From a virus, in the UHGV virus genome UHGV-1430452: a DNA stretch of 64,000 bases. One strand, 5' to 3'. The position numbers and the translations under genes were made by a program. Below, one piece after another: positions 3,968 to 50,550 of the stretch. The stretch's first letter is position 1, and each line of letters begins with the position of its first letter. Under the pieces are notes generated by a model. The model was not told the DNA's origin. It searched no databases and saw only the letters and a list, made by a program, of their open reading frames with translations.

Positions 3968-4465
3968 TTACTCTTCCGGATGTTCCTCCGCTGCAAATCT
4001 GGATGAGAATCTGTCAATATCCTGAGTTACACACATTGACTGCAAATATGCTGCACGGAATGGTTTACCGTTAATCTCAGAATCATACGGTCTGATATCA
4101 AGATCGACACTTGCAATATCAATTTCGTCGAGCATGGATACTGTTTCTTCATCAAGTTTGACTCTATTTCTACCAGACTGAAGATATACAATAGGGCCTC
4201 TGTCGTTAAATTTGACTTTAACTGGAAGATAGATAAATGGTTCATCTCCATCTTCTCTTGGCGGTTTGATCTTTACATTCCATCCTGCTCCAAACTTATT
4301 TACATCATTCTGCAAAGCTTCTGCCATTTCTTCGTTAGGGATAATCAAAGCGAAGTTACGGTCTCCTTCTTTGTTGAATTTACCGCCTTCTCCTCTGAAG
4401 TTTCTGAAAATGATTCTTGCGTCATCGATCTGTAATACTCCTCTTGGTGCGAATGTTAATTCCAT
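3968..4465 (-). CDS. Putative ssDNA-binding protein (T7 gp2.5/DUF2815-style OB-fold; tentative)
   Basis: It has an acidic C-terminal tail (AAEEHPEE) and a beta-rich body, and sits next to the replicase. The family assignment is from memory only. Confidence 0.4.
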   Translation of the reverse strand: MELTFAPRGVLQIDDARIIFRNFRGEGGKFNKEGDRNFALIIPNEEMAEALQNDVNKFGAGWNVKIKPPREDGDEPFIYLPVKVKFNDRGPIVYLQSGRNRVKLDEETVSMLDEIDIASVDLDIRPYDSEINGKPFRAAYLQSMCVTQDIDRFSSRFAAEEHPEE

Positions 4466-4573
4466 AATGTTAATCTCCTTTTAAATAAATATAGTTTTTA
4501 ATGGATTTGATTTAATTGCTGCGTTGGACTTTTGTTTAACTTCCTCGCATATGATTGCTCCTTTCTTGTGATA

Positions 4574-4613
4574 GAAAAACAAAAAGAGTCTCAACCATAA
4601 TCGGTCAAGACTC
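4574..4613 (-). terminator. Terminator-like hairpin + U-run located downstream of box copy 3, in the leader of the SSB-like gene
   Basis: Plus strand GAGTCTCAACC-ataatc-GGTCAAGACTC. The minus strand continues TTTTTGTTTTTC. Confidence 0.5.
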
Positions 4614-4623
4614 CTTATCTCTT

Positions 4624-4649
4624 CATTAAAGCCGTTGTATTTTTCGCGA
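4624..4649 (-). promoter_or_regulatory. Early-box copy 3 (followed by a terminator-like hairpin)
   Basis: Plus strand CATTAAAGCCGTTGTATTTTTCGCGA; upstream of the SSB-like gene. Confidence 0.55.
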
Positions 4650-4655
4650 TTCGTA

Positions 4656-4946
4656 CTATCGTAAAGATTTTGGGACAAGGCTTTTGATAATCTTTTTCTG
4701 ATGCTCGTCCAGATCGTGATATAGAGTGAAACCCGTTGCCCCATTATACTCATCGCCAAACTGTTTGTAGTACATAGATTGTTTCCATAACTCCGGATAC
4801 TCTTTTTTGTACTTTGCGAGTTCTTTTGCTTTCTTGTCATACTGTTTATCCGAAATTATATTATTATCTAACTCGTAATAAATATATGAATGAAGTATGA
4901 TATATCTTTGCAAGTAATCTATGTATTCGAGGGTTGTTAGTTCCAT
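4656..4946 (-). CDS. Stand-alone NAD-dependent DNA ligase domain-Ia-like protein (96 aa)
   Basis: LHSYIYYELDNNIISDKQYDKKAKELAKYKKEYPEL...FG follows the LigA N-terminal pattern H-x-Y-x-Y..D.P.IsD.eYD.L..EL..LE..yPEL....G. It overlaps the replicase stop by 10 nt. Confidence 0.5.
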   Translation of the reverse strand: MELTTLEYIDYLQRYIILHSYIYYELDNNIISDKQYDKKAKELAKYKKEYPELWKQSMYYKQFGDEYNGATGFTLYHDLDEHQKKIIKSLVPKSLR

Positions 4947-7900
4947 GGCAGCTCTACATCTTCATCATCGAATGGAATTTCCTCAGGAGATCCTTCCGGT
5001 ATGTTCATGAAGTCTGGTAAATGAGAATCTCTAAAAGGAGGTTCATGCCGATCTGAAGCATCCCAAGGCGGAGTACCAACATATGGATCGTCTGATATGA
5101 ACCACTCAGCGTCTCCGTATTGACCAATAGTTTCAAGAGCATCATCCACAAGCTTTCGATAATATGAACGATCAATATTTTCTTCATTTCCCGGAGACAT
5201 CATTAACTCGGATTCAAGCCAACGGAAACCAGTTGTTCCTGTAGCTGCATAATATTTACCGTTCTGTTCTCGCATCAATAGTCCTCCACCCTTTCCAGGC
5301 TTAACCGGACAAAATTGCCCAACTTTACCTACGAAATGATAGTCATGACCTTCAGCTATTAAATCGTTTAATCTTCGACACTCACTTTCGAAAGTTGTGT
5401 CCGATAACTTACCTTTCCTGTACTTATCTTCAAGTTTGGATAGTTCTTTTTCATACTCGGATACATCTGGAAGTTTTTCGTTCATATCCAAATATAAAGC
5501 AGATTTTACTGAGAATGCTTCGCACATATCTTTCAACTCAATTGGTTCTTTACTGAACAGTGTTTTAAATACATACGGAACTGCAAACTGTTTTCCAGTA
5601 GCTGTCCATTCTCCGGCATTCTTTCCATCTTTAAACCTAGCCACGTACACAGCATCATTTACTAAACAGAATTTTTCAAAGTTAGCCTCTGTTTCAAATG
5701 TATATCCGTATTCTTTACCGAATTTGGTTACGAAATCAATAATATCAGGAGTAGCATCGGGTATCTTTATGGAATCTGTCTTGATATGACAAACAGTAAA
5801 TCCTCGTTTCTGAACTTCTCTTTTCAATAATGTCATGAAGAGAGCTCCTCTTTTGGCAACAATGTTATCCTTATTTCTAGGATCTCTAAATTCATTTACG
5901 AAGCCAGCTGATGTCAAACCATAAATGGAATTGATAACAATCTTAAGTGCCTGCGCTAAATCAGCAGCCTGTTCTTCATTTAAGTATGGTTTCAACGCTC
6001 CACCTAATAATTGTCCAGCTGTTTCAAAGTCTTTATGCTTAATTGCAACACGAGCTTTTACAATATCCTCAAACCGTTTTGTATATTCTGGTCCAAATAG
6101 ACATTCGAATATAATACTGTGAGGATGCTGAGAAGCAATGTCTCCATCCCATACATTACCGTAATGCCCAGGTTCAGAGTAAACCCGACCGCCTTCTCCA
6201 ATGGCTTCGCCTAAATATGTTGATTTACCAAACTCAAAAGTATAGCCTTTAAAGAATGGAAGAATGCTATAACCTTCTGGAAGCTTTTCGCCAGGAACGT
6301 AAGATCGATATAATGGAAGACCCTCAGAATCAAATACTCTGAAATCATAATCATCTCCGAATTTAATTCTATATTCATCATAACGATCTGAGCTAACCGG
6401 TTCCGCCAAGTATCTATAGTTGAATACATTCTGCGGTTTTTTATTATTTCCAAATATAATTCTTTTAGAAAGAGTATTTGTCGTATCATTAACTGTAACG
6501 TTTGTAATATCATGTAAGAGTTTTACAAGATCAACCTGAATCTGTCTAGCAACAAAGTCTGCTTTTCTTGCATTGAATACAGCTTCCGTCGCAATGACAT
6601 CATTATCGCAATACTCAGCAACCTTTGCCCATAATTCTTCTGGAACTGGTTGATCCCAAGGAAGACCAAGCTCTTGATGATGAATACCCAGTTCAATCTC
6701 CCATTTCTTTAAACTCTGTTTCACAGTTGACATATCATATACATCAATGTAACCAAGATTATATGCCTCACCAAACATGCCATTATCACGGCTTCCCTTT
6801 GGAGCATTAATAATTCTTTGAGATAACTTATATATTTCCTCATTTGTGTATCCCATAAGTCTAGCATAAATGATATGTCTGTCGTATTTACGTCCATTAA
6901 AATCAACAAGTTTAAACTTTAGAAGATTTTCTATTTCTGCTGGTGTAGGATTAATTAATCTAACTACTGTTTTTCCTTCTCCAGCAAACTTATAGTTTAC
7001 CAAAAATAAATTTGGGAATACCTCACAATCATAGAATACAAGATCGTCAGTATCACCCTCATTACTTGTCTCTGAAGCCTCTTCACTCTTAAACGCCATC
7101 TGATTAACTAACTTCAAACACTCATCAGCCTGGTTACTACTACTCGCCGCCAAAGCAAATACAGCATTTTTCATATCAGACACATCATATCCAATACCAC
7201 TCTCATAAGCCTCATCCAAAAGTTTCTTAATCATTTGAATACTTGGAGCTGTGTTACCCATAATTTCTTTATTCAGATGTTTCTTAAGAACGGATCTCAA
7301 ATATTTCTCATTCTTAATACCATCAAAGTTAATCACATTTTTCACCTCTTTCAACGGAAGACCTGAGCTAATTGTACGAATAACAAGATTGACACACTTA
7401 GTAAGTTTTCTTCTAAGAGATGTTTTACCGGTAAATACCTTAATCTCGATATCCTCATCAAATATACGACTTAATTCACTCACATCACCGTTATAAATAT
7501 AATGAAGATGAATACCTCCACCACTTTTGCTTAACTCAGCATATGTTGGAGGCCATTTACTAGCTGCTTCAAGATTCTTCTCGAAACATTTATTACCATT
7601 CTCGTCCTTAATATCAAAGTCAATAACTACATGATTTTCAGGGACCTTGACGTAATGAAGTTTTGATGTGTCAAGTTCTGATAGGGTAGTTGAAACTTCA
7701 TCCCATGGCTTCGTCGGAGTTTCTTTTGAAGTAGCATATTGAGCTGGACAATCAGAACATTCTTTATCAAAAATAGACTCCTGTTCTTCAAATATAAGCC
7801 AGCTCTCAGTTTTCTCATCTCCAATAGGTTTCTCTGCTTTAACCTTTTTCTTCCCACCAATAGAGTCTTCGAAAATATCAGTCTTAAAACCGTCGTAATA

Positions 7901-9163
7901 ACTCAGCAGCTTACTTCCATCTTCTTTCTCCACCTTCTCATCAAATTCCAAAAAATAGTTTCTCAACTCGTCTTTGAATTTTGTCTTAGAAAATGGATAC
8001 GGCACTTTTGCTTCCTCACAGTAGTTTTTATACATCTCCCATGCTGCTTTTAGCGTAGTACCATCTTCTTTCTTGAAGACACTGAATGAATCACATACGA
8101 AGTTATAAAAGTCATTAGAAGCCATAAGCATGTCCTTCGGAGCGTAAGTATCGTAATACTCTGGATCTTCTTTAAAGACTTGTAAACAATGATATGCGAT
8201 TGCTCCCAACTCAAAATCAACCTGTTTGGTCAATCTACGATATTCTCGAATCGGTATCTTGTTTCCAGTAGGACGAACGTCAATCAAACGCCTTAGTAAA
8301 CCAGACTTAGCATCAGTGATCTTAACAGGTGTGTTTGTACCCATAAATAAAAAACATTTGAATCTTGTTTCATATTGTCCTTTAAATTTTTCATTCATGG
8401 TCATTATCTCGTGTGAAATCACCGAGTTTAAGCGCGTATTATCTTCGATTTTTGATAAATCACCATCATGTTGTATCGCTACAAGAGGGTTATTCTTAAA
8501 CGGTTCCAGAGCGAAAACATTATTCGGATTACCCAAAGCTTTTGCGTCAAAAGAACAACAATATCCTTCAAATAATTTCTCGATAATATTTATGATAGTT
8601 GATTTACCAGTACCACCAGCTCCGTAAAGCACCAGGAACTTTTGAAGTATTTTTGATTCCCCAGATACAACGGAGCCGATAGCCCATTCTATTTTACGTC
8701 GTTCTTCTTCGGAATATAGAGTACCGATGAGTTTATCCCATGCAGAAATATCGCCAGGTTCGAGAGGATACGGGAGTCTCTTGCTTGCGAAATTCTCTCT
8801 GCTTAATTCTGTGTTTGAAAATATAAGTTCATCATCGAGTACAGCAAAGTTATCACGCATCTGTTTCTGACAATATTTATGGAACTTATCGATTGAGCCA
8901 CTGTCAGCATCCCACATATACTTAATTACAGGAGTACCTTCAAGACGTCCTTCATTTTCAGCGACATATCTATCAAGTTCTCTATCTACAAGACGGGTTA
9001 CATCGTCTTCATCTGTACTCCACATCTTTCGATCTTCATCCCAGATAGCGTAAAAGTCCCTACCTCGAATCATGAGATCTTTAGATTTCAACATTTTGAA
9101 CTTAGGAGAAACATCAACACTGCTTTTATTCGTCTTCGTTGATACTGTCATGAAGTCCAACAT
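4937..9163 (-). CDS. Replicase polyprotein: SF3 (D5/P4-type) helicase + prim-pol primase + 3'-5' exonuclease/family-B DNA polymerase (1408 aa)
   Basis: Walker A GAGGTGKS (nt 8600..8623). Prim-pol motifs VVIDFD (7613..7630) and GGGIHLHY (7499..7522). Exo motifs FYDCEVF, FNGRKYD, YCDNDV. PolB motifs DIASQHPHS, KIVINSIYG (5918..5944) and IKTDS (5771..5782). Confidence 0.85.
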   Translation of the reverse strand: MLDFMTVSTKTNKSSVDVSPKFKMLKSKDLMIRGRDFYAIWDEDRKMWSTDEDDVTRLVDRELDRYVAENEGRLEGTPVIKYMWDADSGSIDKFHKYCQKQMRDNFAVLDDELIFSNTELSRENFASKRLPYPLEPGDISAWDKLIGTLYSEEERRKIEWAIGSVVSGESKILQKFLVLYGAGGTGKSTIINIIEKLFEGYCCSFDAKALGNPNNVFALEPFKNNPLVAIQHDGDLSKIEDNTRLNSVISHEIMTMNEKFKGQYETRFKCFLFMGTNTPVKITDAKSGLLRRLIDVRPTGNKIPIREYRRLTKQVDFELGAIAYHCLQVFKEDPEYYDTYAPKDMLMASNDFYNFVCDSFSVFKKEDGTTLKAAWEMYKNYCEEAKVPYPFSKTKFKDELRNYFLEFDEKVEKEDGSKLLSYYDGFKTDIFEDSIGGKKKVKAEKPIGDEKTESWLIFEEQESIFDKECSDCPAQYATSKETPTKPWDEVSTTLSELDTSKLHYVKVPENHVVIDFDIKDENGNKCFEKNLEAASKWPPTYAELSKSGGGIHLHYIYNGDVSELSRIFDEDIEIKVFTGKTSLRRKLTKCVNLVIRTISSGLPLKEVKNVINFDGIKNEKYLRSVLKKHLNKEIMGNTAPSIQMIKKLLDEAYESGIGYDVSDMKNAVFALAASSSNQADECLKLVNQMAFKSEEASETSNEGDTDDLVFYDCEVFPNLFLVNYKFAGEGKTVVRLINPTPAEIENLLKFKLVDFNGRKYDRHIIYARLMGYTNEEIYKLSQRIINAPKGSRDNGMFGEAYNLGYIDVYDMSTVKQSLKKWEIELGIHHQELGLPWDQPVPEELWAKVAEYCDNDVIATEAVFNARKADFVARQIQVDLVKLLHDITNVTVNDTTNTLSKRIIFGNNKKPQNVFNYRYLAEPVSSDRYDEYRIKFGDDYDFRVFDSEGLPLYRSYVPGEKLPEGYSILPFFKGYTFEFGKSTYLGEAIGEGGRVYSEPGHYGNVWDGDIASQHPHSIIFECLFGPEYTKRFEDIVKARVAIKHKDFETAGQLLGGALKPYLNEEQAADLAQALKIVINSIYGLTSAGFVNEFRDPRNKDNIVAKRGALFMTLLKREVQKRGFTVCHIKTDSIKIPDATPDIIDFVTKFGKEYGYTFETEANFEKFCLVNDAVYVARFKDGKNAGEWTATGKQFAVPYVFKTLFSKEPIELKDMCEAFSVKSALYLDMNEKLPDVSEYEKELSKLEDKYRKGKLSDTTFESECRRLNDLIAEGHDYHFVGKVGQFCPVKPGKGGGLLMREQNGKYYAATGTTGFRWLESELMMSPGNEENIDRSYYRKLVDDALETIGQYGDAEWFISDDPYVGTPPWDASDRHEPPFRDSHLPDFMNIPEGSPEEIPFDDEDVELPWN

Positions 9164-9374
9164 TCATCTTATGGCCTCCTTTCATTTTTTTAATATATGA
9201 TTCTAATGTTTCATAGCACCAGTCATAAAAATTATGGTAAGTAAAAACAAAATCCGAGCCGCTTTTTATGCGAACTCGGACACTATCTTTACCGTTGGGG
9301 AACCAGTCTTCTACATGAATTGCAATTTCCGGAAATTGTTTGCTAAATTGTTTATATACATCTTCGTGCTTCAT
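9126..9374 (-). CDS. Hypothetical protein (82 aa)
   Basis: ORF track; overlaps the replicase start region. Confidence 0.55.
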   Translation of the reverse strand: MKHEDVYKQFSKQFPEIAIHVEDWFPNGKDSVRVRIKSGSDFVFTYHNFYDWCYETLESYIKKMKGGHKMNVGLHDSINEDE

Positions 9375-11373: not shown

Positions 11374-12312
11374 TCAAATCATGTTGAGAATATCCCCATC
11401 CACATTGAAATCAAGAAGAATAGTTCTCTCATAACCGTTCACGAAGTTACGATTTGCCTCGTTGTAAGTGTTATAGATTCCGAAATCTACGAAATTATCA
11501 CCTACTGGATGTTTCTCGTCATAAATCCATCCAACAATCTGACCTGCCTGTGTACGCGGGATTCCGAGCATATCATATACTTCATTCAGGAACAGATGAC
11601 CTTTCGTTTTCAACATGTCATTTGCATAACGCTGCTGATCTTTAAGGAACATTAGATTGAATTCAGGATCTTTAGTCCATCCTGTACATCCATCATCGAA
11701 GAATTTAGCATAATCGCTGTAACTGTCGAGAGTTGCTACATTTGCTGTTTTCTTAACAGTAGTTTCTGTACCATCTTCATTTACAACAGTCTCTTCGATT
11801 TCTTTTGCTTTGATGTTGTACTTCAGTTCTTTATCAAGCTCTTCACCAAATCTCTCAATAACACGACCACGATATTCCTTGAAGCCTTTGTCAATAGTTG
11901 CATAAGCGGCTGCAAGTGCTAAGTTACGTTTACGAAGAATATGATGACCACTAAGAATAGCAGCGATAGAAACTGTTCCAAGGATTACTGCTGGAGCATA
12001 AAGTTTTGCTACCTTTACGGCTGTTTGAGTATACATGATAGTTAAATCTTTCTTACCATCTTCTTCTGTGTACTCTTTACCTTCTGGAACCATATCTGGA
12101 TTTTCCATAAATTCATGAATTTTCTCGATTTTTTCTTTTGGCTCAGCGAGCACCTCATCGAGTTTAGTAGTTGCTTTACATGCCATTACAGCAGAGCCAA
12201 CTACACCAACAATACCTGCGCCAACCAAGATTTCAGGGCTATGCTTTTTAAATTTAAAACCTACACGATGGAGGCTTCTAGTTACTGTGTTCATAATTTC
12301 TAATTTTGCCAT
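11374..12312 (-). CDS. Two-TM membrane protein, paralogue 1 of 3 (DUF6353-like; name from memory)
   Basis: It shares SPEIL.G.GI.G...SAV.A.KAT.K, a second TM, A..Y......Y..kV.e..GE and ..L...Y..LG......G...GW with 14387..15214 and 16675..17442. Confidence 0.6.
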   Translation of the reverse strand: MAKLEIMNTVTRSLHRVGFKFKKHSPEILVGAGIVGVVGSAVMACKATTKLDEVLAEPKEKIEKIHEFMENPDMVPEGKEYTEEDGKKDLTIMYTQTAVKVAKLYAPAVILGTVSIAAILSGHHILRKRNLALAAAYATIDKGFKEYRGRVIERFGEELDKELKYNIKAKEIEETVVNEDGTETTVKKTANVATLDSYSDYAKFFDDGCTGWTKDPEFNLMFLKDQQRYANDMLKTKGHLFLNEVYDMLGIPRTQAGQIVGWIYDEKHPVGDNFVDFGIYNTYNEANRNFVNGYERTILLDFNVDGDILNMI

Positions 12313-14386: not shown

Positions 14387-15214
14387 TTAATAGTAGCTAT
14401 CGAAACCATATTCCGGAGGCATCAGATGATCAATAACAATACACGGTTCATTATCTTCCGTAATTTGAGCACTATATCTCACATCGATTTTGCCTTTATC
14501 GATTCTCCAACCGATGCTATTACCAACTTCGGTATGCTTAAGACCAATTTCGTCATAGAAATCATTCAGAGAAATATACATCTCGTTACCGTTGATCATT
14601 CTCTCATTAAGAGTAAGAACAGCATTTTTAATCTTGTCGATATCCGATCTGAAATATCTGTCGGAATGACTGTCATAACACAACGTGTTACCTTTACCTG
14701 TCATGATAATCTGAGTGTCTGCAACCGGATGTTCTTCAACTTGCTTCTTAGCGACTTTATCTCTGATGTTATTTTCCTTCTTCTCTCCGATAGTCTCTAC
14801 CACTTTCTCTCTGTAGTCAGACAGTGCTGTTGTAGATAACTGATATGCTGTTGCCAATGCTGCGTTACGTCTTACATGTACGGAATTAGCACCGATAAGA
14901 CAAGCGACTGACGCAATGCCAGTGATAGCTGCTGGAATATAAGGTTTCCAAGCTGCTTTTACTGTTTCGACAGGTGTGAGATTTAAAGCGTTTCTTTCGT
15001 CTTCTTCTGTGAAAATACCGCCTTCATGAGCTTCTTTCTCTTTAAACTTCTTCTCTTCCTCGATTAACTCCATAGCTTTTGGTGTTGCTTTTACTGCAAG
15101 CACAACAGTAGATATCATACCTGCGATACCAATGCCAGTAAGAATTTCCGGACTGCGTTTTTTCATTACATATTTTGCAGTGTTTAAAAATTTTGTTACA
15201 TTTGGTTTGTTCAT
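14387..15214 (-). CDS. Two-TM membrane protein, paralogue 2 of 3 (DUF6353-like)
   Basis: Alignable by eye along its length with 11374..12312 and 16675..17442. Confidence 0.6.
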   Translation of the reverse strand: MNKPNVTKFLNTAKYVMKKRSPEILTGIGIAGMISTVVLAVKATPKAMELIEEEKKFKEKEAHEGGIFTEEDERNALNLTPVETVKAAWKPYIPAAITGIASVACLIGANSVHVRRNAALATAYQLSTTALSDYREKVVETIGEKKENNIRDKVAKKQVEEHPVADTQIIMTGKGNTLCYDSHSDRYFRSDIDKIKNAVLTLNERMINGNEMYISLNDFYDEIGLKHTEVGNSIGWRIDKGKIDVRYSAQITEDNEPCIVIDHLMPPEYGFDSYY

Positions 15215-15262: not shown

Positions 15263-15303
15263 ACTCGGGAAAATTTTGATCTTGAAAAAATAGAAATCGA
15301 AAA

Positions 15304-15375
15304 GAAACAGTGTAGGACTCGAACCCACAACCTACAGATATAAGTCTGTTGCTCTACCAATTGAGCTAACTGTTT
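15304..15375 (-). tRNA. tRNA, probably Ile(UAU), with a 6-nt anticodon loop (72 nt)
   Basis: Hand fold: acceptor AAACAGT/ACTGTTT, D arm GCTC-AATTGGTA-GAGC, anticodon stem ACAGA/TCTGT with loop CTTATA, variable loop AGGTT, T arm GTGGG-TTCGAGT-CCTAC, discriminator C. Confidence 0.7.
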
Positions 15376-15380
15376 CTTCT

Positions 15381-16674: not shown

Positions 16675-17442
16675 TCAATACTCTTCGTAATCAATGAACG
16701 GCTCTGTGAAATCTACAATATAACATTCAATACCGTCGTCCATTTCTACTTTTGTATGGTGGAAATATAGCCAACCATCCCAGTACATTTCATACATCTG
16801 AGCTGCGGACCAACCCATAAATTCACCGTAATCCTGTCGATCAATCTCTAGTAAATCGTAATAATCGTTTAAAGATGCACCACCGGATTGAGATAGCATT
16901 TTATTAATCTCATACTCTGCTCTCAATTGAGTTTCTTTCGTCACACGGTAATAACGTTTGGAATATTCATCGTAGAATAGTGTTTTGCCATCCTCGTATT
17001 CGTCGTCATATTCTTCTTTGTCTTCTTCCTCGTAATGGTCTTTTGCTACAGCAGCACGAATGAGTTTGTCTCCGTCTTCACCATATAACTTTTTAACTTT
17101 GTTTTTGTACTCTTTGTGAGTTTGGTCTAGTAAGGCATAAGCAGATGCGATGGCTGCTTGGGAATGTTTGTTTAATAGATTCGCGCCAAATATGCAAGCT
17201 AGGGTTCCTGTTCCAATCAATAAGGAAGGAATATATGTTGGTCCTGCTACTCGAATAGTCTCCCATTTTGTTAATTCATCTCCTTTCTCTTCTTCAGCTA
17301 GTTCAATAAGTTCCATTGCTTTCGGAGTAGCTTTAACCGCCATTACAGCTGTACCTACCACTCCGGCAGCTCCTAATACTGTTAATATAGTAGAGCTGTT
17401 TTTCTTTACGAATCTTTTCGAAACTGTTAGTAAGTCATTCAT
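16675..17442 (-). CDS. Two-TM membrane protein, paralogue 3 of 3 (DUF6353-like)
   Basis: ORF track 16675..17451; ATG at 17442 preferred over the GTG. It shares VKATPKAMELIE with paralogue 2. Confidence 0.6.
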   Translation of the reverse strand: MNDLLTVSKRFVKKNSSTILTVLGAAGVVGTAVMAVKATPKAMELIELAEEEKGDELTKWETIRVAGPTYIPSLLIGTGTLACIFGANLLNKHSQAAIASAYALLDQTHKEYKNKVKKLYGEDGDKLIRAAVAKDHYEEEDKEEYDDEYEDGKTLFYDEYSKRYYRVTKETQLRAEYEINKMLSQSGGASLNDYYDLLEIDRQDYGEFMGWSAAQMYEMYWDGWLYFHHTKVEMDDGIECYIVDFTEPFIDYEEY

Positions 17443-17472
17443 TTCCAGCACGCTCCTTGGCGATAAATTTGG

Positions 17473-23397: not shown

Positions 23398-23994
23398 ATG
23401 ACAATAGGACAAAAAATAAAAGAATTACGCAATCAACTTAATATGTCGGTGGATGATCTTGCTGTGAAACTGGGTAAGAACCGTGCGACTATCTACCGCT
23501 ATGAACGAGGAGATATCGAGAACCTCCCTCTCGATGTACTAGAACCATTAGCAAATGCTCTTGAGACCACACCTGGTTATTTAATGGGATGGGAAGAAAC
23601 TACGAAAAAGAAAGAGCCTTCAATTATCGATGAAGTTACCATGGGTGACGTTTTTAAAGCGTTACGTCTAGGAAGTAATTTATCGATAGAGGAATTTTCG
23701 CATGAGATTGGATTATCTGCCCAAGACATAAGCAATTATGAAGCAGGAAAGACTCCTATACCTGTAAATATAATTAATCTTGTTGCTGATTTCTTTGGCA
23801 TATCAATAGCGGAAATAGTTAAGGCACACAAAAACAGCGAAAATAGAACGCCTTCTGGTTTCGAAATGAAAAAGGAACGATTTGAACGTTTTAAAGTTTG
23901 GAATAAAGAGTTTGGACGAATACATTTTACTGATGAAGAAATCAATAAAATAATGGAATATACAAGGTTCTTACTTAGCCAAAGAAGACAGTAA
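23398..23994 (+). CDS. CI-like repressor with two XRE-type HTH domains and no S24 peptidase domain
   Basis: IGQKIKELRNQLNMSVDDLAVKLGKNRATIYRYERG and FKALRLGSNLSIEEFSHEIGLSAQDISNYEAG are both HTH_XRE-like. The C-terminus is short and lacks Ser/Lys protease motifs. Confidence 0.75.
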   Translation: MTIGQKIKELRNQLNMSVDDLAVKLGKNRATIYRYERGDIENLPLDVLEPLANALETTPGYLMGWEETTKKKEPSIIDEVTMGDVFKALRLGSNLSIEEFSHEIGLSAQDISNYEAGKTPIPVNIINLVADFFGISIAEIVKAHKNSENRTPSGFEMKKERFERFKVWNKEFGRIHFTDEEINKIMEYTRFLLSQRRQ

Positions 23995-24079
23995 GTCTAC
24001 ATAGGTTTACTCTATTTAAAGGAGGTGATGCCTGAATTCAGTTCATCGTAGAATTTACATCAAAGGAAAGGTGGAACCA

Positions 24080-25657
24080 ATGACAACGTTTGATATGAAC
24101 AACGCTGTAGACAATGCGTTCGGTATGGACGTATATGCTATCTATCTTCGGAAAAGTCGAGCCGATGTAGAAGCAGAAAAACTTGGAGAAGGAGAAACAC
24201 TAGCAAGGCATAGAAAGATACTAACAGAACTTGCTGCTAGAAAAGGATTGTATATCGGTAAGATTTACGAGGAAATTGTATCTGGTGAAACAATCGAAGC
24301 TAGACCTGAAATACAAAAACTGATAGAAGATTGTTATAAAGGGAAATATAGAGGAATCCTAATAGTAGAAGTTACTCGTCTATCTCGTGGTAATCAAGGA
24401 GACGCTCAAAAAATACTCGACTGTCTCAAATATTCGAATAGAAACAATGGTGTATTAGTTATCACTCCTACTAAGACTTATGACGTTGCACACAGCCAAG
24501 AAGACGAAGAATATATGGAGTTTGAATTGTTTATGTCTCGTCGAGAATATAAGATGATTCAAAAGCGTATGGATCGTGGCCGTAAACAAGCAGTCGTAGA
24601 AGGAAACTTCATGGGTAGTTACCGTCCCTATGGATATGACATCTTAAAAACCAAGACCGGACGAACACTTATACCGAATGAAGATGAAGCTCCTATCGTG
24701 AAAATGATTTACGAATGGACAGTTAACGATAATTTATCTCCTTTCAAGATAGCTGAGCGTTTAACTAATATGGGTGTTCCTACTTATTATGGTGAGAAGG
24801 ATTGGTCTAAAGAAACAGTTAAAACCATTTTGACGAATCAGACATACATGGGTAAAGTTCGTTGGAATGATCGAATGACTGTTAAGACTATGGTCGACGG
24901 AGAACTTAAAGCTACACGACCTCGTTCAAATCATTCCGATCACTTCATGCTATATGATGGAAAACATATGAAACACGCACTCGTCGACGAAGAAACATTC
25001 AAAGCAGCCTCCTCTCGCTTTCATAACGATAGGACAAGATCAAATCTAAAACTTGTTAATCCTCTTGCAGGACTTCTATTTTGTAAGAAATGTGGTAAAT
25101 CTATGGGTTATCAATCATATAGACATAAGAAAAACGGACCAATGGATCGATACAATCATAGACAGTCTGCTAATGGATGCAAGGTTAAGTCAGCAGTTGC
25201 TGAGGATGTTATAAAAGCTGTTATACATGCTTTGAAACTTTATATAGAAGATTTCGAATTTAAGTTAGACAACACTCCAGATGTTGACGAAAATTCAATC
25301 AATACGCAGCTCGAAGCTTTACAAAAAGAAATACGAAAATCCGAACGAAAACTTGCTAAGCTATTCGATTCTTGGGAAGATGAGAAGATAACAGATAATG
25401 AATTTGTTCAAAGGAAAGCCGTCCATAATCAGAAGATAGAAAATATAAAGAGGCAAATGGAAGAACTCGAATATTCGATACCAGAAAGAGAAGAATATGA
25501 GGATAAAATAATATTGCTGTCTGAAGCACTTGTCGCTATCACAGACGAATCGCTTGACGCAGATATTAAGAACGAGTATCTTAAAAGAATCATTGATAGA
25601 ATAGAGTTTAGTAGAGAGAATAACTCAGAGTTTATACTAGATATAGACTTATGCTAA
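24080..25657 (+). CDS. int: Large serine recombinase (integrase)
   Basis: YAIYLRKSRAD (catalytic Ser), VTRLSRG, a recombinase domain, the zinc ribbon CKKCGK...C and a C-terminal coiled coil. ATG at 24080 after AAAGGAAAGGTGG (the ORF-track GTG is at 24071). Confidence 0.85.
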   Translation: MTTFDMNNAVDNAFGMDVYAIYLRKSRADVEAEKLGEGETLARHRKILTELAARKGLYIGKIYEEIVSGETIEARPEIQKLIEDCYKGKYRGILIVEVTRLSRGNQGDAQKILDCLKYSNRNNGVLVITPTKTYDVAHSQEDEEYMEFELFMSRREYKMIQKRMDRGRKQAVVEGNFMGSYRPYGYDILKTKTGRTLIPNEDEAPIVKMIYEWTVNDNLSPFKIAERLTNMGVPTYYGEKDWSKETVKTILTNQTYMGKVRWNDRMTVKTMVDGELKATRPRSNHSDHFMLYDGKHMKHALVDEETFKAASSRFHNDRTRSNLKLVNPLAGLLFCKKCGKSMGYQSYRHKKNGPMDRYNHRQSANGCKVKSAVAEDVIKAVIHALKLYIEDFEFKLDNTPDVDENSINTQLEALQKEIRKSERKLAKLFDSWEDEKITDNEFVQRKAVHNQKIENIKRQMEELEYSIPEREEYEDKIILLSEALVAITDESLDADIKNEYLKRIIDRIEFSRENNSEFILDIDLC

Positions 25658-40894: not shown

Positions 40895-43800
40895 TTATAT
40901 CCTCCTTTCTATCACGGCTGCTCTTACAATTTCTTTAACAGCTTCTGTAATATTGCTTCCATCATCATAAGTAAGACCGTTAATGTTATATGAAACACCA
41001 CCAACATTACCTAAGTCTTTACGAAGTCTGTTTATTGCTGAAACAACATCATCCATAGATCCATTTTGAATTCTTTCACCCATCATAGAATTTATGGTGT
41101 TTAGTCTTGACATTACTCCCAATGTAGGAGTTCCATTCAACATGCCGTTAATTGCACTAGCTCCAGATTTAATATCAGACAAATCAAGGACTGGTCTTAT
41201 TGTCGGCTGAGTGTTGATATCTCCGTCAAGAAGACTCGAAATTCTCGACATTGCTGTTTGAGTACTGTTAACAGCGTTATCGGACATTCTAGAAATAGAT
41301 TGTTTCACTAATCCTCCGAACATACCGATACCCTTAGCAAATCCAATAGGAACATATGAACCTATTTTCATGAACACCCTTGAAGGTGAATGAATAGCAA
41401 GATTAGCCCTAGCTGCTGCCGATGCTGCCGCTGCCATTGAAGCTGCTGCATTTGCCGCCGACCAAATGTTCGCTTGAATACCTGCTACAAATCCGCTAGC
41501 TACATAAGATCCAGAACTATAAAAGCTTGAATAATATCCTCTAGTAGAAGATACTGCTGAAGACAATATCGACGTTGTTGTGTTCACAACACTTGAAGCT
41601 CTACTTCGCATACCGTTTACGAATTGTGTCATTAAAGCAACGCCATTAGTTCCAAATACGGATCTTTTACTGCTAATAGCTTTAAGCATCGAGTTGATAA
41701 TATTGGTAGCTGTTGATGTTACCAATGCTTGTTTTGATTTCAAACCATTAGAGAAAGATGTAATTAAGTTCGATCCAATGTTCGACATCTTAGACGTTGA
41801 ACCACTAAATGATTTAGTAATACTATTCATAGAAGTTTGACCCAAAGTAGATACAGCAGTTTTAAACGATGCTACGCCGCTTGTGTTAAGTCCGGCCAAA
41901 CTACTAATAAAATTCTTAATCTTAGTAGCCGCTGTTATAGAGCTAGATATTGATCCGACATTTATACCTGCAACAGAATCAGAGTAACTTTTTAAAGTAC
42001 TTCCGATAGTTCCTATCTTAAAGTTTGAAACTCCACTAGAATCCAAACTTGATAGTCCCTGAATAAAAGTCTTTAATCTATTTGCCGCAGTAACAGAAGA
42101 TGTAACTTTACCAGAGTCCACATTTTCAACCGACTTAGAGTAGCTCTTCAAAGTAGTTCCAATAGATCCTATTTTGAAGTTACTAACACCACTACTATCC
42201 AATCCCGTAAGACTTGATACAAAATTTCTAAGTCTATTTGCTGATGATATGGATGATGAGACTATACCCGGGTCCATATCTTTAACGGAGTTTCCGTAGT
42301 CCTGCATAGCCTTACCTATGGAATTAATCTTGAAGTTTTCAATACCGCTTGTATCAAGACCCACCAGACTAGCTATTAAACTCTTAAGTCTTAAAGCTAC
42401 TGAGACTGCTGTGTTTACTTTAGCGATATCGATATCGGCTACAGATTCTCCGAACTTACCTATAGCCTGTCCAATATTAACCAAATGACCGTCTCCGGCT
42501 CCAACACCTGCAAAGCTACTAACACCACTTGCATCGAGATCGGCTAAAGCGGTAATCAGGTTTTTAATCCTATAAGCGGCTGTTATGGCGGTGTTTATAC
42601 CATCAGAGTTTATGTTTGCAGCGTCTGTTGAGAATGTAGTCATGGCCGAGCTGAATTTTTCGACGTATTTTGAGAATTCCTCAAGATTCATCTTACCGTC
42701 AAACCAGCCTTCTTCTGGAAGGGCTTCTTGAAGAGCTATAATAGCGCTACCTGCATTCGTTACGGATGTTACGACTGCTTCCGATATACCGTCCTCTCCC
42801 ATTCCGGTTTTAAGTTTGCCCATAGCTGTAGCAAATTGACCTATGTTTTCGCCAAAAGTTCCTAAGTCATCTTTTCCGGTAAACCAGTCGATTACTCCTC
42901 CCATATTCTCAAGAGAAGATTGTAATCCAGCAAGTTTAGTAGCCGCATTTATAATAGAAGTAATTGAATCATCATCTATTTTTGTATCTCCTAAATCGGC
43001 AAAAGCAGTTTTCATCGATCCCATAAAGCTAGCGACACTAGACCCAAAAGTCCCTAAGTCGTCCCTTCCAGTGAACCAGTCAACCACTCCTCCTATATTT
43101 TCAAGCGATGACTGCAAGCCTGATAATTTAGTAGCTGCGTCGATGATTATGCCGATTGCTTCGGTATTTATTTTGACTCCGTCTAAGCTTGAAAATGCTT
43201 TTGTCATAGATCCTATAAATAGACCTATATTTACACCAAATGTGCCGAGGTCGTCTCTACCTTTAAACCAGCTTATTACTCCACCTATTGGTTCGAGTGC
43301 TGACTGCAATCCTGCTAATTTAGTTGATCCATCGATAATGGTAGTCAAAGCTTCAGAATTAAATTCAACACCATCAAGACTCTGAAAAGCAGTTTTCATA
43401 GAGAATATAAATTGAGCTACGTTTGTTCCAAAAGTTCCAAGATCATCTCTACCTTTAAACCAACTTATTACTCCGCCTATAGGTTCCAATGACGATTGTA
43501 AATTAGCTAGAATAGTAGTAGCACTTATTATTGCGGTTAATCCTTCTGTGTTTAAAGTAATTCCTTCTAGATCAGAGAACGCAACTTTCATGGAAGATAT
43601 GAATTCTCCTACACTTTCTCCAAATGTGCCGAGGTCGTCTCTACCTTTAAACCAGCTTATTACTCCGCCTATTGGTTCAAGGCTAGATTGAAGTTTACTC
43701 AGTTCAGCAGCTCCAGTAATGATCGATGTTAAAGCTTCCGTATTGAAGGATACTCCGTCAAGACCTAGAAAAGCATTCTTCATTGAGAATATAAATTGAC

Positions 43801-46800
43801 CGACGTTAGTTCCGAAAGTCGCGAGGTCATCCCTGCCAGAGAACCAATCCATAACACCGCCTATAGGCTCCAATGACGATTGTAATTCGCTAAGTTTCGT
43901 TGCTACATTTATCACAGCGCCCATTGCCGCCTCGTCTATTGTGATTCCAGCAGAAGCTTGCGATATCGCTTTCATAGCATTGAAGAACGCAACACCATCG
44001 GTCTCAAACTTCTCCATAGAAGTACCACCGAGAGTGAATATGTCAGCGATAGAAGTACCAACTGTTGTAAATCCTATCTCTGCCATAGCACTCATTAAAT
44101 CGGACACGCCATCGAAAGATCCTGATTTAATACCACTAGCATTTTCGCTTGCTATAGCTAGTTTGTCCATGAAATCAGCAATATTTTGACCTATTTCCGG
44201 TAAACTTCCGGTAATACCTTCTCCGATTCCTCCTATGAATGCTCCGATTCCTTTGCCGATTGCGTTTCCTATTTTTCCTAATAATCCACCGCCAGCTTCA
44301 ACAAGGGACGAAAAACCTGGAATTTTAGATAACCCACCGATTGCTGCCAGAAGTACTGCTATCTCAGCTATTACAGCACCAACGGCTAATACTCCGGTCA
44401 TTGCTGGGCCGGCTAAAGCTCCAGCTCCGGCGAATACTTTCATCAATATTCCGATTACTCCGAATGCACCTATGCCTTTTAGCATAGTATCCATATCTAA
44501 ATTGCCTATCGAATCGACGATACCTTTGACAACTTGTCCGACAAAATTCATTATTGCCGATATTAATTCTGGAGTATGCTCGGCAAGACTATTAATAACT
44601 CCGATTATAAAACCGAGAAGTGAATCGACAATCTGTGGTGCATACTGTTCTAATGCGTCTAAAACGCCTAAGAGCAGTTTCAGAAAACTTTCAGCCAATT
44701 GAGGTGCATATTCTCCTATAACTTTTGCGATTTCGACGATACCTCGACCTATTACTTCAGCAATTTGTGGAATCAATCCTAAAATACCGGTGATTATAAC
44801 TGTTATTGATGCGACAAGCGCTGTGGCACCAGCAGTTCCAGCAGTAGCAAGAGCTGTGAATCCAGCTGATAGAGCAAGTATACCAACGCCAATTCCAGCT
44901 ATAGCTACAGCAAATATAGCCATCGCAGCGGATAAACCAAGTATTGCCGGAGTGAGTGGACTCAGAAGAGCTCCAGCTACTCCTATTACTACAAAGGCTC
45001 CAGCAAGAGTTACGAGACCTTTTACTATGCTCTCCCAACTCATAGATCCTAATGATTTCAATACAGGTGTTAAAATTGCTAATCCAGCAGCTGCAACAAC
45101 TAATGCGGCAGACCCCTTAAGAGATCCACTCATGGCTTTTAATCCAATAGATAGCTCGACCAAAGCTATTCCAAGTACAACGAGTCCTTTTCCTATACTC
45201 TCCCAGCTCATCGATCCTAATGATTTTAAGACTGGAGTTAATATAGCAAGTGCTGACGCCATCAAAAGCATTTGACCGCCGAACTTAGCGATAGATCCAC
45301 TACCCTTGCTCATAATTTTAGAAGCTAACACCAGCATTGTAACAATACCTAATATTCCAGCTCCACCTTTAGCTAATTCGTTCCAACTCATAGAACCCAA
45401 ACTCTTACCAACAGCAGCCAAAATGCCAACCGCAGCTGACATGATAAGCATCTGTCCAGCAAATTTGGTTATAGACTTACTTTCAGTATTCATGAGTTTG
45501 GCAGCACCAACTAATATAGCGACTATTCCTAATATTCCGGCCCCACCTTTGGCTAATTCTTCCCAACTCATTGAACTGAGAATTTTAGCGACTCCAGATA
45601 ACGCTGCTATTGCTGCTGATAATATAAGCATCTGTCCAGCAAATTTGGTTATAGACTTACTTTCGGTATTCATAAGTTTAGCAGCCGCGACGAGTATAGC
45701 TACCATTCCACCAATACCAACGAGGCCTTTTGCTACACCGTTCCAATCAAGTCCAGCTATAATTTTCATAGCGCCTGCTAATATAAGAATAGCTGCTCCG
45801 AGTCCAATCATCTGAACAGTTCTAGCTATACCTGACAAACTTGATACTATACCAGATAAAGGTTTGACACTTTTGCTGTTTATTTTTTCAAGCACTGCTA
45901 ATGCAGATATCAACTCTACAAACAAACCGCCTATTGCGCCTAAAGAACTTCCGAGTTTATCCTCGTCTATTCCAGATATGACAAAAAGAGCCGCTGCCAG
46001 TATTCCAATAGCACCCGCTATTTTTAGCAATGTTCCGGCTTTAAGATTCTGTTGCCATGATTCCAAACTTCCCTTAACGCCATCAAGTATTTTTTTAACG
46101 TTATCTAAGAAACTTATTTTTTCGAATGGATCAGATAATCCTTTAATAAAGTTTCTTATGGCTAGTAATATTCCAGCAAACAATCCGCTGTTTAATACTT
46201 CGAAAATATCGCCTTTACCAAAGGCATCGGCTATCATATTACCTATATCGGAAAAAGCTTCTCCGATGGCCGCGCCAACCGACTTTATAGTGTTCCATAG
46301 ACCGGAAAAGAAGCCAAGAAAACCTTGAAGTGTAGGAGAAATCTTAAAACTCTCAATAAGTGAGCGTCCAAACTCTGCTATTTTTGAAATCCCGTTGCTA
46401 AGAAATCCAACAATTTTATCAACTGCGTCGCCAAACAGATTTCCTTCTACTATGGAGTCTCTCACATTCGAGATAAAATCTCCAAAAGAACTCGTTGCAT
46501 CCAGTATTCCTCCACCAAGTCCGGTGAAGTTTCCAATAATATCTAGAGCGCCTTTTCCAACAGCTTTAAAAGCCTCTATAACAATATCGATAGCGGAAAA
46601 GATTCCTTTAAATGTAGATTTTATTTTAGATGCAGCGCCTTCACTTACTTTTAAAGTATCAGTGAAAGCTTTGAATCTATCAATCATACTTACTACTTGG
46701 TCGACTGTAGTAGGTGGAAATATCTCTCTAAAAGCTTCTTTTATCGGTTTTATTATATCTCCAAGGAATTTGAATATATTTTTCAAACCCTCTATAATTT

Positions 46801-48831: not shown

Positions 48832-50550
48832 TTACAGTAGCTCGTTAACTCGATCCTGAATTTTCTGAATCATGTTGTGATCGTATCCAGCTTTTGCGAG
48901 GGCATTAATTCGTGCATCTCCATTACCGTATTTTCCGGCAATGACATCACGGGCTACATTATCAATCACTATCTGATTTACTTTCTTCTGCACAGTGTCT
49001 GGATTATAACCAGCTTTCTTGAGAGCAGACACACGAGCATCACCATTACCCCATTTTCCAGCTAAAACCTCTTTAGCTACTTCATCGATAGATTTAGTAG
49101 GTTTTGCAGGAGCTTTAAGTAGTTCATTCACTTTCTTCTGTACAGTGTCTGGATTATAACCAGCTTTCTTGAGAGCAGACACACGAGCATCACCATTACC
49201 CCATTTTCCAGCTAAAACCTCTTTAGCTACTTCATCGATAGATTTAGTAGGTTTTGCAGGAGCTTTAAGTAGTTCATTCACTTTCTTCTGTACAGTGTCT
49301 GGATTATAACCAGCTTTCTTGAGAGCAGACACACGAGCATCACCATTACCCCATTTACCGGCGATTACTTCTTTAGCAATTTCATCGATAGATTTGGTCG
49401 GTTTTGGCGTAGATGTAGGTTTAGATGTTGGTGCTGGTGTGGAAGAACTTTTCGCATATTTTGGTCTAGCAAAACCACGAATCATACCCCAGCCAACCGG
49501 AATGGTACGTCTTGCTACTGCTTCTCCTCTGTTACCTTCAATCGCTGTGATTTGTCCGTTTGAAACAGATTCCACATACCCGATATGATCAGAATATCCG
49601 TCGTTTGGCTGAGTCTTATCATCCCAGTTATAAACAATTACATCACCAGGTTTCGGAGTAATGGTGCCGTCCTCGACCCAAATGCCTTTCTGCTTAAAAA
49701 TCTTAATATGTTCCTCACAACCAACTTCTGTACCGATGAGATCGACTGCTCCGGATTTGATAGCTGCTGCTGATACTGTACAATCACACCATTCATCATT
49801 AGGTTTAATAGCGTATCCGCGAGCCAAAGGTTTGTGAGAATTATAGATGTTAAGAATCTCAATATATTTACCGTTAGCTTCAGAATAACCGAGCCAACTT
49901 CTCATAACATTAAGAACGTCCTGTGCTGTTACACCCAATTCCGTATCCTCCTGTTTTCCGTAAAAATAGTTCATGTCGACTTTACCTTTAATACCGCCTA
50001 CAGTTCCGGAACTCGTATACTGATGAACCAAACAACCGTAATCTGCTTTTCCGTTATAATCAGCGAGCCAGAATTTGTACTGTTTAATCAGATCATGATT
50101 ATACCAATTTCGATAGTAGTCGATATTTGCGTAGATTCCAGCTTTGTATCCCTGAGATTCTACGTACTCACAAAAGATTCTTGTAAAGTTATTACATTCA
50201 TTTTTACCAAGTCTCACACCTTTTGCAGCTGCTTTCTTGACTGTGTCATATTCGAAATCTGCGAAGATGATTGTGTTTTTATCAAGACCAGCTTTTCTAA
50301 CAACATCAACACAGAATTTTGCTTCGTCAAGTGCGCCCTGTTCGTTTAAGGCATAAATAAAATGGTAAGTTCCTATAATCGGAATCTTGTTGTTTTTACA
50401 CCCATTGACATACTCATAGAATTTTGAATCTACTGTCTTCCTGTAAGAAGATCTAAGAATCGCGAACTCTATTCCGGAGGACTTGACTTTAGAAAAATCT
50501 ACATCTCCCTGCCAATAGCTGATATCAATTCCTTTCTTCACAATCATCAT
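48832..50550 (-). CDS. Peptidoglycan hydrolase: GH25 muramidase + NlpC/P60-or-CHAP-like cysteine peptidase + 4 CW_7 (Cpl-7) cell-wall-binding repeats
   Basis: The N-terminal GIDISYWQGDVDFSKVKSSGIEFAILRSSY is GH25-like. The centre has WCDCTVSAAAIKSG...DHIGYVESV...IEGN. The C-terminus has 4x SIDE(I/V)AKEV(I/L)AGKWGNGDARVSALKKAGYNPDTVQKKVN. Confidence 0.85.
   Translation of the reverse strand: MMIVKKGIDISYWQGDVDFSKVKSSGIEFAILRSSYRKTVDSKFYEYVNGCKNNKIPIIGTYHFIYALNEQGALDEAKFCVDVVRKAGLDKNTIIFADFEYDTVKKAAAKGVRLGKNECNNFTRIFCEYVESQGYKAGIYANIDYYRNWYNHDLIKQYKFWLADYNGKADYGCLVHQYTSSGTVGGIKGKVDMNYFYGKQEDTELGVTAQDVLNVMRSWLGYSEANGKYIEILNIYNSHKPLARGYAIKPNDEWCDCTVSAAAIKSGAVDLIGTEVGCEEHIKIFKQKGIWVEDGTITPKPGDVIVYNWDDKTQPNDGYSDHIGYVESVSNGQITAIEGNRGEAVARRTIPVGWGMIRGFARPKYAKSSSTPAPTSKPTSTPKPTKSIDEIAKEVIAGKWGNGDARVSALKKAGYNPDTVQKKVNELLKAPAKPTKSIDEVAKEVLAGKWGNGDARVSALKKAGYNPDTVQKKVNELLKAPAKPTKSIDEVAKEVLAGKWGNGDARVSALKKAGYNPDTVQKKVNQIVIDNVARDVIAGKYGNGDARINALAKAGYDHNMIQKIQDRVNELL
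48975..49410 (-). repeat. Tandem 150-bp near-identical coding repeats (CW_7 units plus linkers)
   Basis: The blocks at 49111..49260 and 49261..~49350 are identical by eye. The unit beginning at about 48975 is nearly identical. A fourth, divergent unit lies at 48835..48970. Confidence 0.85.

Follow-up and report, generated by a model that had tools for sequence, protein, structure and literature searches.

A GP55-like helicase-primase-polymerase, most probably a 'four-in-one' replicase, in the gut phage genome UHGV-1430452

Introduction

Can the helicase, primase and DNA polymerase of a phage reside in a single polypeptide, and has such a protein been described before? The question is raised by a 64,000-nucleotide stretch of the UHGV virus genome UHGV-1430452 (hereafter the window), in which one gene, labelled 'hypothetical protein' in the source database, encodes a protein of 1408 amino acids (aa). 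A sequence-only reading had proposed that this protein fuses a superfamily 3 (SF3) helicase, a primase and an exonuclease-proficient family B DNA polymerase (PolB) in an undescribed architecture. Here we find that the 1408-aa protein is most probably a phage replicative enzyme of the type of GP55 from Lactococcus phage 1706, a 'four-in-one replicase', an assignment to which we give a rough probability of 0.93. The window is part of a longer contig (the identical protein lies on 96.6 kb elsewhere), and our scans for replication genes cover early-region ORFs of the window.

The fusion of an SF3 helicase, an archaeo-eukaryotic primase (AEP) and a PolB was named by Kazlauskas, Krupovic and Venclovas in 2016, with gp55 of phage 1706 as the example; in dns of phage N4 the AEP also lies C-terminal to the helicase, which there belongs to SF6 (Nucleic Acids Research (NAR) 44:4551, PMC4889955). 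Zhang, Lu, Zhu and Huang purified GP55 in 2025 and described it as a 'four-in-one replicase' (NAR 53:gkaf542, PMC12205980). In that study DNA polymerase activity was abolished by D949A, 3'-5' exonuclease activity by D712A/E714A, and the UTP/dTTP-dependent helicase by K189A, with strand displacement depending on the helicase. RNA primer synthesis, whose preferred start is GTP at 5'-CCAAC-3', was abolished by D509A, and also by mutation of Y655 or F667 in a new alpha-helical domain (aHD) on which priming depends. GP55 carried out complete de novo replication of single-stranded M13 DNA and was mainly a dimer by size-exclusion chromatography with multi-angle light scattering (SEC-MALS). More than 1000 homologues were counted, mostly in human-associated phages, and phage 1706 was found to have no replication genes besides GP55 and the single-stranded DNA (ssDNA)-binding GP66 (PMC12205980).

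Results

A single intact open reading frame on the minus strand

The ORF list and translation show one uninterrupted, ATG-started open reading frame (ORF) of 1408 codons plus stop on the minus strand at 4937..9163. The plus-strand frame of the same interval contains many stops, and a plus-strand reading was therefore dropped. The sequence-only reading, which had left the strand unstated, was thus right about a single 1408-aa polypeptide, and every motif it quoted is present at the residue number it gave, in the translation as well as in the alignments. The start at 9163 is well placed, given an AGGAGG 11 nt upstream, within the 3' end of the upstream ORF 9126..9374, and an N-terminal MLDF that is near-invariant across the replicase family. 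At a G+C content of ~37%, ~7% of random codons are stops, so that by our estimate 1408 open codons would arise by chance with a probability of the order of 1e-43.

The same gene recurs in independent material. An identical protein, called from Met5 (P0001), is encoded on an independent 96.6-kb JGI contig, and more than 120 independent full-length relatives from different samples share 66-95% identity with the 1408-aa protein. Homologues at a coverage of at least 80% are found in 252 deposited phage genomes.

Full-length homology to GP55 and conservation of its catalytic residues

BLASTP against gp55 of phage 1706 aligned aa 7-1374 with GP55 aa 11-1315 at 39% identity (886 bits) and brought every motif into register; the domain boundaries of GP55, 439/440 and 688/689, fall at 442/443 and 692/693 in the 1408-aa protein. 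Likewise, PHROG 4210, 'DNA polymerase', matches aa 2-1361 over profile positions 1-1290 of 1304 (1870 bits). The polymerase-family phrog_1252 matches aa 690-1179 (5.6e-44), and primase-helicase PHROGs match aa ~120-430. In a single-sequence Pfam search, DUF5906 was found at aa 179-292 (7.4e-13), together with weak matches to Pox_D5, E1 and VapE, and Pfam DNA_pol_B was not detected; phmmer against the Protein Data Bank (PDB) returned 7ola and a non-significant match to E. coli Pol II (E 0.19). Single-sequence profiles thus see the helicase only; it took PHROGs, homologues and fold comparison to recognise the polymerase and the primase.

Residues were mapped on an alignment of 123 family sequences that includes the 1408-aa protein. 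GP55 K189, D507/D509, Y655, D712/E714 and D949 correspond to K187, D515/D517, Y659, D712/E714 and D1008, each of them invariant in all 123, while F667 corresponds to L671 in a column of 64 Phe and 59 Leu. H552/H554 are also invariant across the family alignment. Of the seven residues at which mutation inactivates GP55, six are therefore kept, and the seventh, F667 to L671, is a conservative and family-typical change. The intact ORF, the full-length homology, the catalytic residues and the folds of the three enzymatic regions described below are direct observations.

The family to which these residues belong is large. A HMMER search with the AEP and aHD only (aa 455-700) returned 461 clusters at 50% identity with E <=1e-3, 225 of them with E <=1e-30. 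Among the 150 best representatives, 112 carry the module at about residues 430-740 of proteins of 1200-1520 aa, which suggests that it is essentially confined to this architecture. The motifs are kept in homologues from Lactococcus, Faecalibacterium, Gordonia, Arthrobacter and Streptomyces phages, and actinophage homologues are routinely annotated 'DNA primase/polymerase'. The architecture is accordingly far from undescribed: it was named in 2016 (PMC4889955), its biochemistry was reported in 2025 (PMC12205980), it has its own PHROG family, and it proves to be both common and already characterised, the very outcome that the sequence-only reading had said would refute its novelty. Judged by its sequence, the 1408-aa protein is an uncharacterised, ordinary member of a described and biochemically characterised family.

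Shorter representatives recur in two types, one ending ~240-290 aa after the aHD and the other without the N-terminal helicase region; examples are P0127, P0141 and P0156 (~930 aa) and P0134, P0160 and P0177 (~960 aa). These may be incomplete metagenomic sequences, or true variants of the replicase that are split or lack the helicase. A split gene in Streptomyces phage SendItCS (locus L009) was considered and rejected: gene 55 (4277-8212) is full length, and the other segment matched by tblastn, ~2.3 kb upstream of it, is gene 51 (1498-1995), whose 165-aa product is paralogous to the N-terminal region and is itself annotated 'DNA primase/polymerase'. Apparently, the N-terminal domain can exist alone.

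Domain layout and predicted structure

Owing to the size of the protein, AlphaFold2 (AF2) was run on two halves, aa 1-700 and aa 680-1408. The model of aa 1-700 has a predicted local distance difference test (pLDDT) score of 76.6, with low-confidence segments at 347-349, at the linkers 434-452 and 606-617, and at the last six residues (pLDDT <50). The model of aa 680-1408 has a pLDDT of 83.4 and a predicted template modelling score (pTM) of 0.72; its tail, beginning at about aa 1371, is disordered. Foldseek matched the N-terminal half to SaPI5 Rep (7ola, 1.9e-11), followed by C962R of African swine fever virus (ASFV), the C-terminal region of the NrS-1 protein and mpox E5. For the C-terminal half, the top 50 PDB matches are all family B polymerases (E 5.5e-14 to 2.8e-11), among them KOD, 9°N, Tgo, Pfu, Pol alpha and E. 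coli Pol II. Together, the models and fold matches reproduce the GP55 order of helicase, PriS-like AEP, aHD and PolB, the last comprising exonuclease and polymerase (Table 1).

The protein begins with a beta-rich domain that is kept in the actinophage and Lactococcus members of the alignment. The helicase region that follows has the features of a D5-type (DUF5906) SF3 enzyme, namely Walker A, Walker B, a sensor Asn, an Arg finger and a fold match to solved SF3 helicases, and ends in a C-terminal helical, winged-helix-like part. The AEP combines the catalytic fold with a DxD motif I (VVIDFD, aa 512-517), an sxH motif II (GGGIHLHY, aa 548-555) and an acidic residue as motif III, the probable candidate being E573. 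No match to PriCT or PriL was found in Pfam or PDB sequences; the four-helix aHD takes that place. When a profile of the AEP and aHD was run against PDB sequences, a match of a lactococcin-A immunity protein to the aHD part (E 0.02) was set aside as a non-significant helical-bundle resemblance.

The PolB part has the expected fold, together with exonuclease motifs I to III and polymerase motifs A, B and C. The exonuclease motifs, common to seven divergent family members, are D712-C-E714 (ExoI), FNGRKYD at aa 755-761 (ExoII) and YCDNDV at aa 851-856 (ExoIII); those of the polymerase are DIASQHPHS at aa 1008-1016 (A), KIVINSIYG at aa 1074-1082 (B) and IKTDS at aa 1127-1131 (C). Fold searches on the predicted structures thus back the earlier assignment of a D5-type SF3 helicase, an AEP primase and a PolB with exonuclease, although that parse had overlooked a fourth module, the aHD.

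Table 1. Features of the replicase gene, its product and the two genes downstream of it. Coordinates are those of the window.
Feature	Coordinates	Strand	Residues (aa)	Details
Replicase ORF (GP55-like 'four-in-one', probable)	4937..9163	-	1-1408	1408 aa + stop; phrog_4210 end to end; 39% identity to 1706 gp55
Shine-Dalgarno AGGAGG	9175..9180	-		11 nt upstream of ATG at 9163; direct sequence reading
N-terminal beta-rich domain	8804..9163	-	~1-120	AF2 pLDDT mostly 80-90; five strands and two helices
D5-type SF3 helicase region	7838..8803	-	~121-442	Walker A K187; Walker B D233/D235; sensor N277; R291/R292
Walker A / P-loop GAGGTGKST	8597..8623	-	181-189	K187 = GP55 K189
Flexible linker and PriS-like AEP primase	7349..7837	-	~443-605	Motif I D515/D517; motif II H552/H554
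Alpha-helical domain aHD	7088..7348	-	~606-692	AF2 helices 613-630, 639-654, 662-673, 679-688
PolB 3'-5' exonuclease subdomain	6464..7087	-	~693-900 (C-terminal boundary approximate)	ExoI D712/E714; ExoII N756/D761; ExoIII Y851/D855
PolB polymerase subdomain	5054..6463	-	~901-1370	Motif A D1008; motif B K1074/N1078/Y1081/G1082; motif C T1129-D1130-S1131
48-aa insertion	6254..6397	-	923-970	Between exonuclease subdomain and Pol motif A; pLDDT about 88-95
Disordered C-terminal tail (predicted)	4940..5053	-	1371-1408	pLDDT <50; ends ...PEEIPFDDEDVELPWN
Solo Nlig-Ia gene	4656..4946	-		96 aa; Pfam PF22745 8.7e-22; phrog_6466
ssDNA-binding protein gene	3968..4465	-		165 aa; Pfam PF24083 5e-42; phrog_4787

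Comparison with known systems

The closest characterised relative is GP55 itself (phage 1706, Fremauxvirus), which resembles the 1408-aa protein in domain order and whole-length homology, and both genomes encode homologous ssDNA-binding proteins. The two differ in that the 1408-aa protein is 91 aa longer, with two insertions and an acidic tail that are absent from GP55, and in that its Pol motif A is preceded by WDGD in place of LLD. The gene for the ssDNA-binding protein lies ~4 kb downstream of gp55 in phage 1706 and one gene from the replicase here, and the host, Lactococcus for phage 1706, is probably a gut Firmicute here, as suggested by the best phage matches.

Proteins of the Faecalibacterium phage FP_oengus ('helicase/polymerase', AUV56521) and of Gordonia, Arthrobacter, Streptomyces, Curtobacterium and Microbacterium phages match over their full length at 44-58% identity, with the same motifs and architecture. 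FP_oengus also has an ssDNA-binding protein gene two genes downstream of its replicase. The FP_oengus and actinophage homologues are annotated by similarity, and the clade-specific insertions and tail are lacking or shorter in them.

Other systems share parts of this plan. Pas55 of Actinoplanes phage phiAsp2 follows the same helicase-primase-polymerase logic with an SF3 helicase, a DnaG primase and a PolA (PMC4889955); judged by that description, its DnaG/TOPRIM primase and family A polymerase are unrelated, and the resemblance is analogous, not homologous. In D5 and P4-alpha types (vaccinia D5, mpox E5, ASFV C962R, SaPI5 Rep, NrS-1) the primase lies N-terminal to the helicase and there is no PolB, whereas in the 1408-aa protein the AEP (aa 443-605) follows the helicase (aa 121-442) and is in turn followed by the PolB. 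These types also form hexamers, in contrast to the GP55 dimer seen by SEC-MALS, and use a PriL, PriCT or helix-bundle domain where GP55-type primases use the aHD. The PolB of Seuratvirus/Nonagvirus coliphages (CAjan, and the 9g relatives JenK1 and JenP2), annotated DNA polymerase B, gives a weak tblastn match to aa ~709-1175 only (~24% identity, E 1e-7 to 1e-9), with no fused helicase or primase.

Clade-specific features and variant polymerase motifs

Alignments show that the gut clade shares the 48-aa insertion, that FP_oengus has a shorter version, and that GP55 and the actinophage proteins lack it. A second insertion, of ~33-50 aa near aa 1226-1275, is restricted to the closest relatives. 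The predicted tail, whose final ~24 residues are acidic and aromatic, is absent from GP55 and from the actinophage homologues.

In seven diverse members, Pol motif A follows the pattern DxxS(L/Q/M)-H-P-(H/S/T)-S, in which the steric-gate Tyr of DxxSLYPS is replaced by His; here this is H1013 (window 6125-6127, minus strand). This His and the KTDS form of motif C are family-wide variants, as read from the alignments, and are compatible with activity in GP55. Neither is discussed by Zhang et al. (PMC12205980). A His at this position could relax sugar discrimination between ribonucleotides (rNTPs) and deoxyribonucleotides (dNTPs).

Neighbouring genes

The replicase gene is followed, one gene away, by that of an ssDNA-binding protein with 31% identity to gp66 of phage 1706 (E 4e-21). 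This gene also follows the replicase in five relatives (L003, L004, L010, L011 and L012) and is, as far as gene order and sequence tell, its conserved companion. The early-region ORFs that were scanned in the window gave no further recognisable replication enzyme. The earlier suggestion of a near-minimal replisome with an adjacent SSB-like gene fits the description of phage 1706 by Zhang et al., except that the two genes are not immediate neighbours.

Between them sits a solo Nlig-Ia gene, which encodes the NAD+-binding Ia domain of NAD-dependent ligases without the ligase, and whose ATG falls inside the final 10 nt of the replicase ORF (overlap ATGGAACTAA). It is present in L003 and L004 and was not found in L010-L012. 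In 1706, FP_oengus, Petito, Niktson, Popy, P092 and SendItCS, the first one or two genes after the replicase do not include it either. We considered Nlig-Ia as a conserved partner of the replicase and rejected this, as relatives with 82% and 67% identity lack the gene, which is sporadic and accessory. Solo Nlig-Ia proteins have been reported in 81 phages (Iyer et al. 2022, PMC9503650).

Further features of the window bear on the nature of the element. Upstream of the replicase lie three paralogous DUF6353 / phrog_2152 genes (11374-12312, 14387-15214 and 16675-17451, all on the minus strand), a triplet also seen in L003, L010 and L012. The plus strand has only two sizeable genes, which separate the structural from the early module and encode a repressor-like helix-turn-helix protein (23398-23994) and a large serine integrase (24071-25657; phrog_95, 1.2e-91); from these two genes and their position the element is probably a temperate phage or prophage. 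A 2515-aa ORF (40895-48442, minus strand), presumably the tape measure by its position, is preceded by a 572-aa protein (48832-50550, minus strand) with strong endolysin/amidase matches; a place between head and tail genes is unusual for a lysin, and this protein may be a virion-associated one. ARAGORN reported one odd 'tRNA-???' with a two-base anticodon (ta) at 15303-15376 (minus strand), probably a false positive or a degenerate tRNA-like element. Megablast of window positions 1-25000 against phages found only one distant relative, with 72.6% identity over 11% of the query; the phage itself is absent from the cultured set.

Discussion

We infer the activities, nucleotide preference and oligomeric state of the 1408-aa protein from its homology to GP55. 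On this basis, the SF3 helicase would unwind DNA by NTP hydrolysis (with UTP or dTTP in GP55), and the AEP, with the aHD standing in for the usual PriL or helix-bundle cofactor, would synthesise short RNA primers de novo, with loose specificity for the template site. Extension of these primers with dNTPs and proofreading would then fall to the PolB, either of the same subunit or of a partner, which would gain strand displacement from the helicase, while the nearby ssDNA-binding protein would coat the exposed strands. Such a phage would need very few replication genes of its own.

Several points weigh against this assignment. Identity to the characterised enzyme is only ~39-42%, and the activities rest on homology. 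The AF2 alignments were shallow, with 48 sequences that are all at least 64% identical to the query. By sequence, the AEP is seen by Pfam Prim-Pol only at E 0.083, in five of seven members, and has no significant PDB sequence match. The GP55-essential F667 is Leu (L671) here, as it also is in 59 of the 123 members; the steric-gate Tyr is replaced by His, and motif C has KTDS where the canonical form is DTDS. Lastly, the window covers part of the contig, so further replication genes outside it are possible.

Three other explanations compete with a GP55-like replicase. An assembly error or an unnoticed frameshift might have joined separate helicase-primase and polymerase genes, and a few family representatives are indeed shorter, at ~930-985 aa, or at ~950-1070 aa without the helicase part, so that split or truncated replicase forms may exist. 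However, the identical protein on another contig, the full-length relatives from different samples and the 252 deposited genomes, in which the gene is in one piece and which include isolated, Sanger/Illumina-finished phages, make such a joining very unlikely. GP55 was itself expressed as one active polypeptide (PMC12205980), the modelled domains of aa 1-700 are folded outside the short segments given above, and the apparent split in SendItCS is a small N-terminal paralogue beside a full-length gene. We accordingly give an artefact next to no weight.

A subtler alternative accepts the gene and questions the primase: the protein could be a polymerase-helicase whose AEP is dead or repurposed, for example for origin binding or scaffolding, with priming done by the host primase or otherwise. 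An AEP that is unusually small, hardly detected by sequence profiles and devoid of the usual PriL/PriCT helper would suit such a role, as would the loss of F667. This we consider improbable, given that D515/D517, H552/H554 and Y659 are invariant, that the same module with its aHD makes RNA primers in GP55, where D509A abolishes priming (PMC12205980), and that roughly half of the family has Leu as the usual alternative to F667. Protein priming by a PolB of the phi29 type, on a linear genome with terminal proteins and with the AEP and helicase in other roles, might be suggested by the alignment of GP55 PolB motifs with phi29 DNA polymerase by Zhang et al., and by the strand displacement and very long products of GP55 (PMC12205980). 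Yet the best fold matches are to RNA/DNA-primed enzymes (archaeal PolB, Pol alpha and E. coli Pol II), and de novo synthesis by GP55 requires NTPs and its own primase (PMC12205980). No terminal-protein gene was recognised among the annotated neighbours, and the serine integrase and repressor-like protein are typical of a temperate phage and not phi29-like, which leaves protein priming a highly improbable explanation.

For a GP55-like replicase, there is then the matter of whether this clade works differently from GP55. That the 48-aa insertion, the acidic tail and the translationally coupled Nlig-Ia change the working of the enzyme relative to GP55 seems to us doubtful. In the T7 replisome, the acidic C-terminal tails of gp4 and gp2.5 mediate protein contacts. 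By analogy, the tail could dock the ssDNA-binding protein. Nlig-Ia, for its part, could tie replication to NAD+ levels or to the NAD+-dependent ligase of the host.

Little of the biology is new: the fusion was catalogued in 2016, its four activities were shown in 2025, and its abundance in human-associated phages had already been reported. What changes is that a 'hypothetical protein' in a gut-phage contig can now be annotated with confidence as a GP55-like replicase, with the experimentally defined catalytic residues of GP55 mapped onto its 1408 residues. The clade-specific differences recorded here, comprising two insertions, an acidic tail and a coupled Nlig-Ia gene, would be of use in testing a second member of the family.

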